Below, in pieces: positions 17,175 to 55,010 of a stretch of DNA of 55,010 bases. This DNA is from an uncultured Bacilli bacterium (GTDB lineage: Bacteria; Bacillota_I; Bacilli_A; RF39; UBA660), in assembly GCA_947589195.1 (NCBI GenBank), contig CANPZX010000001.1, forward strand, positions 1 to 55,010, in the 5' to 3' direction. Each line of letters starts with the position of its first letter. Position 1 is the first letter of the stretch. The translations under genes were made by a program, and so were the position numbers. The notes below the pieces were generated by a model, which searched no databases, was not told the origin of the DNA, and saw only the letters and a list, made by a program, of their open reading frames with translations.

Positions 17175-17390
17175 TTGCTTTTTTATTTGAATAAATTCCT
17201 TTGCTGAAAAAAGTAAGTAACCAAGAGAAGTTAATAGAGGTACAAAAAAGAGAACACACCGAAAAAATATTGACATTATCATCCGTACAAAAATAGAATG
17301 GGATATTTAGTTTTAATAAAAAATGATAATTTTAGGCTTTTTCTACATAAAAAAGGACTATAATGAATACATCAAGTCCGGAGGTTAAAC

Positions 17391-17759
17391 ATGAATCAAA
17401 TTAAAGAGTATAACGAAACAATTTTTGAGAGCATAAAACACACTAATGAATATTGGCTTGCTTGAGAGTTAATGGTAGTACTTGAATATAAAAGATGGGA
17501 TAAATTTAATAATGTTATAGATAATCTAAAGTAGCTTGTGAAAAAAGTAATAATCTTATTGACGACCATTTTTCCCAAGTGGGAAAAATGGTAGAAATAG
17601 GTTCCGGAGCCAAAAGAAAACAAGCTGATTATGAGTTATCTAGATATGCTTGTTACTTAATTGTTCAAAATGCAGATTCAAGAAAAAGAAAATGTTGCAC
17701 TTGGGCAAACATATTTTGTTGTTCAAACAAGAAAACAAGAAAAGATTGAAATGAAATAA
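17391..17759 (+). pseudogene. dinD: DNA-damage-inducible protein D (DinD-like) pseudogene
   Basis: RBS GGAGGT plus ATG. Reads MNQIKEYNETIFESIKHTNEYWLA-TGA-ELMVVLEYKRWDKFNNVIDNLK, continues in another frame as VACEKSNNLIDDHFSQVGKMVEIGSGAKRKQADYELSRYACYLIVQNADSRK, then a third frame as EKVALGQTYFVVQTRKQE. That is one nonsense codon plus at least two frameshifts, and only the N-terminal half is present. Confidence 0.8.
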
Positions 17760-17760
17760 A

Positions 17761-18130
17761 TTTGGGTTTATCACCCCGCAAGGAGAAGTAGGATTAATGT
17801 ACCCAAGTGATTATGGCTATGCAACCGAAGGAGGCAGTTTAGGACGAAACTTATGTTTAAATTAATTGGAGTAATGGAGAATATCAAAGTAATTGTGCAT
17901 ATACCGATTGGTTATTAAACAAAGATTCGTCTCAACATCGGATATGGACTCTTTCGCCGCATTCGTCCTCTAGCGATCATGCTTTCTATGTCTTTATTTC
18001 AGGACATGTCAAAAATAGCAGCTACTATGTCTATGGTCAAGGTGCCGTTTCTCCAGTCCTATATCTAAAAAGCAATATAGAAATAAGTGGAGGAGAAGGT
18101 AGTCCTTTAAATCCATATATTTTAAAATAA
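17761..18130 (+). pseudogene. 3' remnant (copy E) of the NPY-tail surface-protein family, frameshifted
   Basis: Reads ..PQGEVGLMYPSDYGYATEGGSLGRNLCLN, then shifts frame to WSNGEYQSNCAYTDWLLNKDSSQ..WTLSPHSSSSDHAFYV...AVSPVLYLKSNIEISGGEGSPLNPYILK. This is collinear with the last ~120 aa of the gene ending at 48058. About 9 of 10 nt were identical over the first 60 nt I aligned by eye. Confidence 0.8.
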
Positions 18131-38678: not shown

Positions 38679-39566
38679 TTAATCTATAATTGCAAGTACG
38701 TATTTTATTAGACTGTTCTTTATCATTTCATCTTCTAATTTATTAATTGAAAAAGTTTTACTTCCTGCATAATTAAGAGATGATCCACAATGATAAACTG
38801 CTTTTCGATCTAATATAATATATCTATCATGAAAATAATTATTATAAACAATCTTTAAATTATTATATTGCTCTTGGTATTTATTTATATCTATTTCTTT
38901 TAATAAACCATTATTTTTACAAATTATAGTTACGTTAACTTTTAAATTTCTTATCATATCTAAAACATTTTTATCGGCATAATTATCAATAATAATTATG
39001 TTGTCATAGGCTCCTTTTAAAATATCAACTATTTTTGAATAAGCATCATAAATTTGGCCATTAAAATAAATTTCATTATCTTTTTTCTTTTCTTCAAATT
39101 TAATAAAAGATTCTTGCAATAATTTGATATCTTCATCGTGTTTTATTACTAAATTATTAATATATTTTTGTTCAATTAATTCATTAGAAATATATTTTCG
39201 CATTATTACAAAAGCATCCATAATTGCAATACTTACTTGGGTTGCAACATTAGATTTTAAAATAGTGGCAAGCATCGCTACACCTTGTTCTGTAAATACT
39301 TGAGGTAAAAATTTTGAATATTGTCCCCGTTTAAGTTCTAAGGTCGCATTTTGCGACCTTAGAATACCAATATATTCATTTTTACTTAATTTAAAGCAAA
39401 ATCTTGCTGGAAATTTTTGAGGATTTCTTTTTACTGCTTCATTAATTCTTTTTGTTTCTACTTCATAAAGTTTTGCTAAATCTGAGTCAAGCATTACTTG
39501 CTTTCCTCTTACTTCATAAATCATATTTTCTATTTTTACTTGTTTTGTTAGCATAACATCATTCAT
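38679..39566 (-). CDS. ORF6N-domain protein (KilA-N-related DNA-binding N-terminus) with uncharacterised C-terminal domain; intact copy 1
   Basis: IYEVRGKQVMLDSDLAKLYEVETKRINEAVKRNPQKFP..FCFKLS, FTEQGVAMLATILKS. C-terminal ...FHDRYIILDRKAVYHCGSSLNYAGSKTF. Confidence 0.8.
   Translation of the reverse strand: MNDVMLTKQVKIENMIYEVRGKQVMLDSDLAKLYEVETKRINEAVKRNPQKFPARFCFKLSKNEYIGILRSQNATLELKRGQYSKFLPQVFTEQGVAMLATILKSNVATQVSIAIMDAFVIMRKYISNELIEQKYINNLVIKHDEDIKLLQESFIKFEEKKKDNEIYFNGQIYDAYSKIVDILKGAYDNIIIIDNYADKNVLDMIRNLKVNVTIICKNNGLLKEIDINKYQEQYNNLKIVYNNYFHDRYIILDRKAVYHCGSSLNYAGSKTFSINKLEDEMIKNSLIKYVLAIID
39336..39364. repeat. Perfect intragenic palindrome in ORF6N copy 1 (13-bp arms, 3-nt centre)
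   Basis: TTCTAAGGTCGCA-ttt-TGCGACCTTAGAA, checked base by base. Encodes ILRSQNATLE near codon 72. Confidence 0.95.
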
Positions 39567-39843: not shown

Positions 39844-40208
39844 TTTTGCATCATTACAAAAGTGTGTATAATACTAGTACTTACTTTCAAGGCAACCGAA
39901 GTTCTTAAAATACTTGCAAGCATCGCAACTACTTACTCGGTAAAAACATATGGATTTTTTCTAATTCCACCATGCTTTGAAGTTTCAAATTGAAACTTCA
40001 AGTTTTTATATTCTTCGTTAGTTAATTGAAAATAAAAATCTTCAGGAAACCTATCAATATTTCTTTTTACTGATTGATTAATCGTCTTAGTTCCATTTAC
40101 ACATTCATAAAGTTGGGCTAAATCAGAATTGAGCATTACTTGCTTTCCTCTTACTTCGTAAATCATATTTTTAATCTTTTCTTCTTCAATTAATGCCATT
40201 GCATTCAT
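39844..40208 (-). pseudogene. ORF6N copy 3: N-terminal domain plus stub, nonsense-interrupted and 3'-truncated
   Basis: MNAMALIEEEKIKNMIYEVRGKQVMLNSDLAQLYE...YVFTE-TAA-VVAMLASILRTSVALKVS... TAA sits where copy 1 has CAA (Gln). The C-terminal domain is absent. The 5' leader (catct(t)aaaataccccc..ttcgtttataa) is duplicated from copy 1. Confidence 0.7.
39977..40001. repeat. Perfect palindrome in ORF6N copy 3 (12-bp arms, 1-nt centre)
   Basis: TTGAAGTTTCAA-a-TTGAAACTTCAA. Encodes LKFQFETS near codon 73. The sequence is unrelated to the copy 1 palindrome but sits at the same position. Confidence 0.95.
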
Positions 40209-46330: not shown

Positions 46331-46401
46331 TAATATTTTTTTATTTACATAACAATAAATTTTATGTTATTATTTCTATAGAATAAAGGAGATGTTAAGA
46401 A

Positions 46402-48058
46402 ATGACTGAAACACGTTTAGGGGGGGGGGTTATTAAGAAGTAAGAAAGTAATCCTTACATCTTTAATAATCTTCCTTGTAGCATTAGTAATAGGGGTAAC
46501 TTATGCTTATTGGAAAGTAGATGAAAAACAAACTTCCTTAAATTTATTAAATTCTAATTGTTTAAAAGTAACATATGAAGACATAAATGAAGGGATAACG
46601 ATTGAACATGGCTATCCCATGAGTGATAGTGATGGCATGGAGGAACCATATTACCAATTTACGATATCAAATATCTGTGAAAATGATTGGGCCTCTTATC
46701 AAATAAATATAGAAACAATTGAAGCTTCAACAGAGGAAACTCCCAAATATTTGCCGGAGCGATATATAAAAGCTAATTTAAGTGTTGGAGAAGATAGTAA
46801 AGTAACAACGAAATTAACAAGTGATTTAAATGTTACACCAACAATTGAAGAAGCAGTAAGAGCTTATAAATTATTAGTAGCTAAATTAGCCCCAGGAGCA
46901 AGTGTAACTTATGATTTAAGATTATGGATGGACGAAGGAGTAACAATGGAAAACACCGATGCAATGAACGCTACCTATGAAAGTAAGATAAGTGTAGTCT
47001 TTAGTTATATGGAACCACCAGTATATTTAGTCGATAAAATAAAAGAACAAGCAAGTAAAGATGAAAATGTCTGTGGAGATAATGGAATAGTAGAAGTAAA
47101 ACATGATGACGCTACGATTGCAGATATTGATTATCATACATTTGATGAAAAATTAAATAATGAAACAGTAAAATCCAATCTAAAAATGACGGAATATCGA
47201 TATTGTGGAGAAGACCCTAATAATTATGTAACATTTAATAATGAAACAGCTGGCTGGCGAATAATCGGATTAGTTAATACTCCGGAGGGTCAACGAATTA
47301 AAATAATCAGAGCAACACCATTATATCTGAATTTATCATGGGATAATAAACCAAGTGGAACTGGTTCATCAAATAGCTCATATGGAAGTAATGATTGGAG
47401 CGATTCAAGATTACAAGAATTATTAAATAAAGGTGGAGCCTATTATAATCGAACAAGTGGTACTTGTTATAAAGGCTCAAGTAATGCATCAACCTCATGT
47501 AATTTTGGAGATAGTAGTGAAACACCTGGGTTAACCGCTGAAGCAAAAAATATGATAGATACAATTACTTGGAACTTAGGAGGAACTGCTAGTTACAGTA
47601 GTGCTTCCAATGGACTTACAAAACACTTTTACAATTATGAAAGAGGGATAATAGTTTACACAAACAGTAGTTTAACAAATCCAAGGCCAACCTTATGGCA
47701 AGGAGAAGTAGGCTTAATGTATCCTAGTGATTATGGATATGCAACCGGAGGAGGTAGTACCTATAACCGTGGAGCATGTTTAAGTAAGGAATTATACAAT
47801 TGGAGTAGTGGAACATATCGAAGTAATTGTGCCCATACAGATTGGCTATTAAACAAAAGTTCATATCAATGGACTCTATCGCCGTACTCGTCGGCTAGCA
47901 ACTATGCCTTCTATGTGCATACTGCGGGTATTGTCTACAGCAACTACTATGTCAACAGTGCGTACGCCGTCGCGCCAGTCCTATATCTAAAATCCGATGT
48001 GCAAATAGGAGAAGGGAGTGGTCTTGATACGAATCCTTATACTTTGGAACAAGGGTAA
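46402..48058 (+). CDS. NPY-tail surface-protein family, copy C; poly-G phase-variable, frameshifted (OFF) as sequenced
   Basis: ATG 46402 with RBS AAAGGAG. G10 at 46420-46429 gives MTETRLGGGVIKK-stop. With G9 the frame runs through LLRSKKVILTSLIIFLVALVIGVTYAYW... into the 479-aa track ORF (46619..48058). The span is 1657 nt, which is 3n+1. Confidence 0.8.
46420..46429 (+). repeat. G10 homopolymer (slipped-strand phase-variation tract)
   Basis: Counted directly: g at 46420 plus nine g at 46421-46429. Confidence 0.95.
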
Positions 48059-54505: not shown

Positions 54506-54719
54506 AGAAAATAAAAAAGTACTATTAATTAGTACTTAAACTTTAAGGAAAGGATGCGAGGATACAATTACAAATTGATAATTATATACCTGCTTTTAGA
54601 AAAGGAATAAATCCTTTCCTAATTAATAGTATACACTAATATTATTAAATTTCAACTATTTTTGATTTACTAAGTTAAATAAAAATGTTAAGATATAGAT
54701 AAGAATGGAGAAGATGAAA

Positions 54720-55010
54720 ATGGAAAAAATAGCAAATGGGGGGGGGGTTATTTAAGAGTAAGAAAGTAAGACTTTCTATTTTAATAATTCTCTTAATAAC
54801 GTTAGTAATAGGAAGTACCTATGCCTTATGGCAAATAACCCATATCCAAACCGGATTAAATAAATTAGCAAGTAATTGTTATGATATTGAATTTAGTGAA
54901 CAAGATAATATAGTTTTAAAAGAAGCCATACCGATATTAAATAGTGAAGGAGAAAAGTTAACTCCCTATATAATAAGCATCAAAAATACTTGTGATGCTG
55001 AAACTAAATA
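54720..55010 (+). CDS. NPY-tail surface-protein family, copy D (5' part only; runs off the window); poly-G phase-variable, OFF as sequenced
   Basis: ATG 54720 is 9 nt after GGAG (an in-frame ATG also exists at 54714). G10 at 54738-54747 gives MEKIANGGGVI-stop (TAA 54753-54755). With G9 it reads MEKIANGGGLFKSKKVRLSILIILLITLVIGSTYALWQ...TPYIISIKNTCDAETK and stays open to the window end. Confidence 0.75.
54738..54747 (+). repeat. G10 homopolymer (second phase-variation tract)
   Basis: Counted directly: ggg at 54738-54740 plus seven g at 54741-54747. Confidence 0.95.

Follow-up and report, generated by a model that had tools for sequence, protein, structure and literature searches.

Contingency loci built on homopolymers are textbook cases in a few cultured pathogens, whereas measurements of them in gut commensals are few. 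Contingency genes with poly-G or poly-C tracts are known from Campylobacter jejuni, Helicobacter and Neisseria, and in the pilC gene of N. gonorrhoeae the poly-G tract lies in the region encoding the signal peptide. General reviews of such systems are available (PMC2823697, PMC5320596). Repeats also occur in promoter spacers, as with the poly-G tracts of Neisseria porA and opc and the poly-A tracts of the Mycoplasma hyorhinis vlp genes, while in Haemophilus influenzae lic1 a (CAAT)n repeat just after the start region is combined with start codons in two frames, giving strong, weak and off states. In Bifidobacterium breve UCC2003, the sortase-dependent pilus genes bbr_0113a/b and bbr_1889a/b contain intragenic tracts of G11 and G10. 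The shorter of these was measured as 93.4% G10 and 6.5% G9, and lengths that permit pilus formation were enriched in vivo (PMC9187656). Here, we analyse a 55,010-bp stretch of DNA from an uncultured Bacilli bacterium (a whole contig of 27.6% GC, hereafter the window) in which two paralogous genes, C and D, each contain a G10 tract close to the 5' end. Our main subject is gene D, which is cut by the contig end and is probably a contingency (phase-variable) locus whose expression is switched by slipped-strand mispairing.

Reading frames around the G10 tracts of genes D and C

A sequence-only reading of the window had placed a G10 tract at positions 54738-54747, six codons (MEKIAN) behind ATG 54720 or the in-frame ATG 54714, in a frame that reads MEKIANGGGVI and stops at TAA 54753-54755; direct reading and translation agree with it on each of these points. 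The in-silico translation of a G9 form, GGGLFKSKKVRLSILIILLITLVIGSTYALWQ... (MEKIANGGGLFKSKKVRLSILIILLITLVIGSTYALWQ...), is likewise as proposed, with no stop up to base 55010. When G9, G10 and G11 forms are translated side by side, a change of one base in the tract exchanges a truncated peptide and the full-length open reading frame (ORF), the long frame on the 3' side being open for at least 87 codons and closed a few codons upstream. The start codon ahead of the tract is well served by its Shine-Dalgarno (SD) sequence: the anti-SD duplex for ATG 54720 is -9.6 kcal/mol, compared with -5.9 and -6.5 kcal/mol for recO and era in the window and a weak -4.2 kcal/mol for a further ATG, at 54736, which overlaps the tract.

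This embedded ATG bears on the earlier claim that gene D had been sequenced in its off frame. The claim is right for the strong start, ATG 54720, but needs correcting overall, because ATG 54736 keeps the long ORF in frame in the sequence as it stands, giving MGGGLFKSKKVRLSIL... (MGGGLFKSKKV...) with 91 codons open to the contig end. A product from this codon begins MGGGLFK..., and a leader-fused product of the G9 form would begin MEKIANGGGLFK.... Gene D is thus not demonstrably off; because the embedded start is in frame, it would be off for the strong start and yet possibly weakly on. Among the 1.84 billion representatives of a protein library, the full-length sequence closest to D is that of P0200 (648 aa, 74% identical to D over all 91 residues). 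It is called from the same MGGGLFKSKKV start, and P0003 and P0190 are likewise called from an MGGG start. With a tract-overlapping ATG in frame and relatives called in this way, gene D may have three expression levels and not two.

The switch might operate as follows. The G10 tract would separate a short SD-driven leader from the signal-anchor of a protein that is secreted or exposed at the surface, and slipped-strand mispairing in replication would change the tract length, n. At n = 9, which is divisible by three, the well-initiated leader would be fused to the gene D body and expression would be full. At n = 10, the length sequenced, the leader would end at TAA 54753 and only the weak-SD ATG 54736 would be in frame, giving low or no expression, and at n = 8 or 11 no start would be in frame and gene D would be off. 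Copy C would work alike, as a plain on/off switch with no tract-embedded ATG, and two independent switches could conceivably give four combinatorial phenotypes.

In the downstream frame of copy C, the codon right before the tract is TAG, closing this frame 3 codons upstream of the tract end. Because of this stop, and because no start follows until ATG 46619, copy C is truly off as sequenced. The 63 codons between its tract and that first ATG, which could be translated only after a frame change, contain no stop and no indel, and the ratio of nonsynonymous to synonymous substitution rates (dN/dS) in them is 0.39 when compared with L081, a C orthologue from another sample and genomic context whose G10 tract is also out of frame. 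Another orthologue, P0122, has no homopolymer and reads in a single frame as MTETRLGMVVLNSKIKLL... (MEERLKMTETRLGMVVLNSKIKLLSLIILL...); because it fuses the leader in frame, the ATG of the MTETRL leader is the true protein start. Three close relatives of C (P0002, P0006 and P0013) are given as truncated proteins in public annotations.

The residues after the tract had been described as conserved between C and D, which is borne out by 41.6% identity over 89 residues, and the 18 nt directly 3' of the tract are nearly identical at the DNA level. The accompanying statement that the codons before the tract are unrelated is true of the leader residues, which differ, but not of the arrangement: GGAG, spacing, ATG and the 18-nt distance align without a gap in C, L081 and D. 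The gapless alignment of the three 5' ends covers GGAG, ATG, the 18 nt ahead of the tract and about 20 nt beyond it, so leader length and signals are conserved even though the residues differ. The proposal that the tract and its position are what is maintained is supported.

Long G runs in the window and in relatives

The window contains only two runs of seven or more G or C, namely the G10 tracts at 46420-46429 (copy C) and 54738-54747 (D), and both sit 18 nt after an SD-served ATG of the paralogues. Runs of ten or more G or C are expected 0.0005 times in the window for independent bases and 0.006 times under a first-order Markov model; with two runs observed against 0.006 expected, the arrangement lies far beyond chance, as the sequence-only reading had held. 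Within the window genes, GGG makes up 14.5% of glycine codons, and the probability of three successive glycines all being GGG is P = 0.003.

Relatives were collected in two comparison sets. The first, anchored on recO, covers 80 related species (1.15 Mb) of uncultured gut Bacilli, with titles including 'Mycoplasma sp. CAG:776' and Candidatus Onthocola. RecO of the window was at most 66% identical to that of any GTDB species representative, so the source species is absent from that collection. These loci contain five G or C runs of at least eight, where 1.8 are expected. Four of the five lie within the spacers of near-consensus, sigma-70-type promoters, and the fifth (L067) is a G10 tract near the 5' end of the coding sequence of a distantly related family gene, out of frame and in need of G9. 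The second set, anchored on the protein family of C and D, comprises 80 gut-metagenome loci (0.46 Mb) with seven such runs against 0.9 expected, all seven in or beside family genes and six of them at 5' ends. Taking the window and both sets together, 13 of the 14 runs of eight or more are found at promoters, leaders or 5' coding regions. All 14 read as poly-G, and none as poly-C, on the sense strand of the gene that they precede or enter. Tracts within promoter spacers occur in L029, L046, L057, L080 and L119, in contrast to D and C, where the tract is 3' of the start codon. The tract in L057 precedes the gene of a 514-aa polytopic membrane protein and a gene that we take, by eye only, to encode a UbiA-like prenyltransferase.

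Family genes with tracts in the coding region or leader are found in several states. The orthologous leaders L106 and L108, which are 90% identical, have G9 and G8, respectively. L140, L152 and L162 have G8 in 5' leaders and L153 has an internal G8; in L152, AAATG plus G7 is in frame with a 444-codon ORF, the same arrangement as the embedded ATG of gene D. A search of representatives with the N-domain yielded family proteins in which a short leader is followed by GGG and then by the charged region. At the DNA level, in-frame tracts are seen in L163/L164 (ATGGAAAAAAACACATGT-G9-TTGTTT, encoding MEKNTC-G9-LFSQ), the leader of which, MEKNTC, closely resembles the MEKIAN of D, as well as in L165 (...IIN-G9-YF, from ...ATCAAT-G9) and L167 (...VL-G9-YS, from ...GTGCTC-G9). 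L166 has an in-frame G10 in which the first G is the wobble base of ACG. Because in-frame and out-of-frame alleles occur across family members, both states of the design exist in nature. In L162 (3482-3489) and L140 (3162-3169) a leader plus G8 stands upstream of family genes that have their own starts (MNFKRKL... and MKIKLKTT..., respectively), and these modules look like switch relics or upstream ORFs with another role. We also considered whether the 'AT' that precedes some tracts, and so makes an embedded ATG, is under selection; at about 4 of about 12 independent tracts, against about 13% expected, the signal is too weak.

Searches for further copies gave little. Exact-protein look-ups with glyS and era of the window and with the relatives P0002, P0003, P0006 and P0122 returned no match and no second copy of locus D, and a protein search with the 98 residues of D was also without a match. 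A profile of N-terminal domains matched only two proteins, and a DNA pattern of at least seven G followed by LFKSKK-type codons had no match in the metagenome collection or in viral contigs.

The family itself is very large, with more than 3,367 matches to full-length C and 2,123 clusters (at 50% identity) matching the N-domain, and in most members the N-terminus consists of M, lysines, a hydrophobic helix and (S/T)YA(L/Y/V)(W/F). An AlphaFold model of C (pLDDT 68) has an N-terminal helix (residues 2-28), a confident beta-sandwich (about residues 34-195) and a less confident C-terminal part. In Pfam, the C-terminal domain of C is a sub-threshold DUF6273, and gene D has no match. The D relatives P0200 and P0009 differ from C in having a weak FGE-sulfatase match in the C-terminal part; judged by P0200, complete D would be some 650 aa long and end in an FGE-sulfatase-like domain. 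Membership of a SipW-dependent, TasA/camelysin-like group was considered and set aside, and a TasA-like fold is a lead only.

In phages, DUF6273 is a C-type-lectin-like target of diversity-generating retroelements (DGRs; PMC10743442). Relatives in our sets have pairs of variable region (VR) and template repeat (TR) of about 100 bp at and after the 3' end of family genes, with 13-20 mismatches, nearly all of them at TR adenines (17/17 in L025, 17/17 in L109, 20/21 in L087 and 14/15 in L115). ORFs for YMDD reverse transcriptases (RTs) lie downstream of these pairs, and in L140 a VR/TR pair occurs together with a G8 tract in the leader. In the window, the 3' end of copy C (47850-48050) is VR-like and, at 43-47% GC, rich in GC. 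We rejected a DGR in the window, as it contains no TR or RT and self-BLAST of the C 3' end matches only a decayed paralogue. A separate observation concerns a hypervariable, VR-like patch in three contigs that are identical elsewhere. L105 (5230-5236) and L149 (1244-1250) have a G7 run there, and L153 has G8 (1561-1568), with a change of reading frame at that run; the difference could have arisen as a by-product of a DGR, through chimeric assembly of VR variants or by slippage at a further site.

Taken further, these data might reflect a lineage-wide 'phasome', in which nearly all long G runs would switch one secreted family, from promoter spacers or from codons 4-11, a family that would also be hypermutated by DGRs and of which some members, D included, would have a third, low-expression state. 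We hold this wider proposal tentatively and find it somewhat doubtful as a whole.

Weighing slippage against other explanations

The observation itself is real and highly non-random, and a phase-variation reading is well supported by comparative anatomy. The same design occurs in frame and out of frame in relatives, and poly-G is also placed in promoter spacers, so a slippage-driven expression switch, as first suggested from the window sequence, continues to be the best reading. Switching at gene D itself we infer from this comparative anatomy. A consensus sequence in the off state is unremarkable because the B. breve G10 tract, too, was mostly G10.

Several points weigh against this reading. 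The two C-type tracts available, from the window and from L081, are both G10 and show no length difference; the leader-plus-tract arrangements that are out of frame in C, L081 and L067 are all G10 and all need a -1 change, a uniformity that recoding at a fixed tract, or a systematic miscall, could also produce. Since the in-frame examples came from protein searches, which are able to find in-frame alleles only, the ratio of on to off is biased. Upstream of gene D, and flanking its tract, no promoter-like site was found. Use of ATG 54736 is backed by no more than gene calls in relatives, and a ribosome initiating at ATG 54720, 16 nt upstream, would compete with it. As for the product, surface exposure is a reasonable inference from the N-terminal helix and weak structural matches: the top PDB match of the C model is the TasA-like archaeal bundling pilin 7ueg_A with a TM-score of just 0.37, and the SipW-type signal peptide model TIGR04088 scores 12.9 bits, below the cut-off of 19.

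The uniform tract length could also mean that G10 is fixed and the DNA is not switched, expression depending instead on programmed recoding, either by RNA polymerase slippage that yields G9 transcripts or by a +1 ribosomal shift on GGG GGG GGG G. Gene D joins C, L081 and L067 in having G10 and needing the same -1 correction, and GGG, as a minority glycine codon (14.5%), could favour slow decoding; the 55-kb window contains no tRNA genes. We nevertheless think such a mechanism unlikely. The in-frame G9 alleles of L163/L164, L165 and L167 need no recoding and argue against an obligatory mechanism, while promoter-spacer poly-G and the G9/G8 difference between L106 and L108 are DNA-level variants that it leaves unexplained. 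In the B. breve case, moreover, the change was in the DNA (PMC9187656).

An error of assembly or sequencing, with a true majority length of G9 and with D and C simply intact genes, is in our judgement no more probable than recoding. Homopolymers of 9-10 are error-prone, the L081 contig has about 2x coverage and all out-of-frame cases share an identical +1 offset; against this, G10 recurs across independent assemblies and studies (window, L081 and L067), G9 tracts are assembled as G9 elsewhere and the close C relatives P0002, P0006 and P0013 are also called truncated. Even if such an error were present, a G9 at codon 7 would stay hypermutable, and the slippage switch would survive it.

Gene D could also be an ordinary gene that is constitutively expressed from ATG 54736 (MGGG...), the upstream ATG and the tract having no regulatory meaning. 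The ORF from this codon is intact as sequenced, the MGGG start is the annotated one in P0200 (74%), P0003 and P0190, and the ATG-plus-G-run of L152 is likewise in frame. We find this unlikely as well, given the weak SD of ATG 54736 (-4.2 kcal/mol) beside the strong and ideally spaced SD of ATG 54720, the improbability of three successive GGG glycine codons (P = 0.003), the existence of leader-fused proteins in relatives and the SD/ATG/18-nt/tract geometry common to C and L081, neither of which has an embedded ATG. Finally, that D and C are decaying pseudogenes inactivated by frameshift, as the decayed family fragment in the same window and the lack of an in-frame start in C might suggest, is highly improbable and is rejected because of the long open frames (542 stop-free codons after the tract in C) and the dN/dS of 0.39 in an otherwise untranslated segment; two paralogues, as well as an orthologue recovered from a different sample, moreover have the frameshift exactly in G10 and at the same codon.

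Genomic surroundings and comparison with known systems

Genes C and D are embedded among housekeeping genes, in the order murT, a GATase_3 (CobB/CobQ-like) amidotransferase, C, a YabP-family gene, yqfD, era, recO, a LOG-like gene, glyS and D. The positions of the features discussed are collected in Table 1. A third family member survives as a decayed 3' fragment, which shares 70% identity with the 3' end of C and contains stops and frameshifts. Beside it, within 17300-18130 of the window, lies a broken ORF that we take, by eye only, to be DNA-damage-inducible protein D-like; both are just upstream of hrcA. The corresponding place in L163, between uppS and hrcA, is taken by an intact family gene of 1,448 aa that has a G9 tract.

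Between glyS and D there are nested perfect inverted repeats of 13 nt (54520-32 with 54619-31) and 10 nt (54546-55 with 54611-20), forming a hairpin with a minimum free energy (MFE) of -26.8 kcal/mol (z = -4.05) that may not belong to the switch. The hairpin and the upstream region of D had no Rfam match, and no other copy of the hairpin was found in the window. Elsewhere, on the minus strand, a 295-aa ORF (38679-39566) and a 91-aa truncated paralogue (39933-40208) share the N-terminal motif IENMIYEVRGKQVML, presumably ORF6N-like (judged by eye only); the pair is inserted between a penicillin-binding-protein gene and ftsW in a cell-division cluster.

Table 1. Positions of features in the window and in related loci (n-nt spacers are given between the -35 and -10 motifs).
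Feature	Location	Position	Strand	Details
Shine-Dalgarno GGAG, gene D	window	54707..54710	+	9 nt 5' of ATG 54720, just 3 nt 5' of ATG 54714
Gene D leader frame	window	54720..54755	+	MEKIAN-GGG-VI-stop as sequenced; ATG 54714 in the same frame
Embedded ATG, gene D	window	54736..54738	+	'AT' plus the G that opens the tract; shares the frame of the long ORF as sequenced
G10 homopolymer, gene D	window	54738..54747	+	putative slippage tract; codons 7-9 of the leader frame
Gene D body	window	54748..55008	+	positive n-region LFKSKKVR, hydrophobic helix, TYALW (about 54748-54831), then start of N-terminal beta-sandwich
Promoter-like site, copy C	window	46344..46373	+	TTTACA, 18-nt spacer, TG-TATTAT
Copy C 5' end	window	46388..46443	+	GGAG 46388-91, ATG 46402, leader MTETRL, G10 46420-29, TAA 46441-43
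Gene C body	window	46430..48058	+	542 codons open from the tract; first start codon ATG 46619
Decayed 3' fragment of third family member	window	17780..18130	+	just upstream of hrcA (18440)
Nested perfect inverted repeats	window	54519..54632	+	glyS-D intergenic; may not belong to the switch
G8 in promoter spacer	L029	9991-9998		TTGACA-16-TATAAT; contig ends within about 50 nt of the tract
G8 in promoter spacer	L080	9663-9670		TTGACA-16-TATAAT; contig ends within about 50 nt of the tract
G9 in promoter spacer	L057	10792-10800		TTGACA-19-TATAAT
G9 in promoter spacer	L046	3991-3999		TTGACT-15-TATTAT; upstream of a family gene
G8 in promoter spacer	L119	115-122		TTGACT-17-TATAAT; drives a family gene
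VR/TR pair	L025	2305-2405/2723-2823
VR/TR pair	L087	1355-1453/1653-1751
VR/TR pair	L109	1634-1728/2142-2241
VR/TR pair	L115	5360-5462/5876-5975
VR/TR pair	L140	4663-4763/5246-5346
VR/TR pair	L089
VR/TR pair	L120

The literature that we searched contained no earlier description of poly-G switches in this lineage or family, and the locus is most likely a known kind of switch in a lineage and a protein family for which none has been described. The same device would here be at work in an uncultured gut Bacilli lineage represented by metagenomes only, and on a very large uncharacterised family of secreted proteins. Were the wider phasome proposal true, AT-rich, small-genome gut Bacilli, including those represented by rabbit and human gut metagenome-assembled genomes (MAGs), would diversify one family on two tiers: on/off or graded expression via poly-G, and hypermutation of the ligand site via DGRs. 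There would be consequences for annotation, several relatives having been deposited in N-terminally truncated form, most likely from an out-of-frame tract, and for strain-level metagenomics, in which tract length would be a readable phenotype marker. A third possible consequence concerns host or phage interaction in these organisms, the family being targeted by DGRs in relatives.

Each of the systems described at the outset shares part of this design. With DGR targets that have C-type-lectin-like DUF6273 domains (PMC10743442), the relatives of C and D have in common family genes with a 3' VR, a TR and a YMDD RT; this is a separate mechanism from a poly-G switch, however, and the contig analysed here has no TR or RT and lacks the 3' end of D. 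The promoter-spacer repeats of porA, opc and vlp resemble the G8-G9 tracts that relatives place between near-consensus -35 and -10 elements with spacers of 15-19 nt, whereas the tracts of D and C are inside the coding region. The two start codons of lic1 parallel ATG 54720 (strong SD) and ATG 54736 (weak SD) of gene D, although the repeat there is a tetranucleotide and not a homopolymer, and three-level behaviour is, for gene D, a proposal. Campylobacter and Helicobacter also over-represent G8-G11 in an AT-rich genome and, together with Neisseria, place such tracts at the 5' ends of genes for surface structures, where frameshifts turn several independent loci on and off and so produce combinatorial phenotypes; these are Gram-negative pathogens with measured switching rates, whereas the present case is a Bacilli lineage seen in MAGs only, and a different family.

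The closest precedent, by this analysis, is the set of pilus G-tracts of B. breve. There are differences: the signal peptide is encoded before the tract there and after it here, the B. breve genome is GC-rich, making G runs less exceptional than in a contig of 27.6% GC, and the B. breve product is an LPXTG pilin, in contrast to an unrelated N-terminal beta-sandwich whose C-terminus is either C-type-lectin-like (DUF6273-like) or FGE-sulfatase-like. For B. breve, switching has been measured; for gene D, it is proposed from comparative anatomy. What the two have in common is a short upstream ORF with an SD and a start codon, a tract of G10-G11 and a main ORF without an SD or start of its own that is off in the reference sequence, in both cases in a Gram-positive gut commensal with two independent loci per genome; in B. 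breve, it is slippage that restores the frame.

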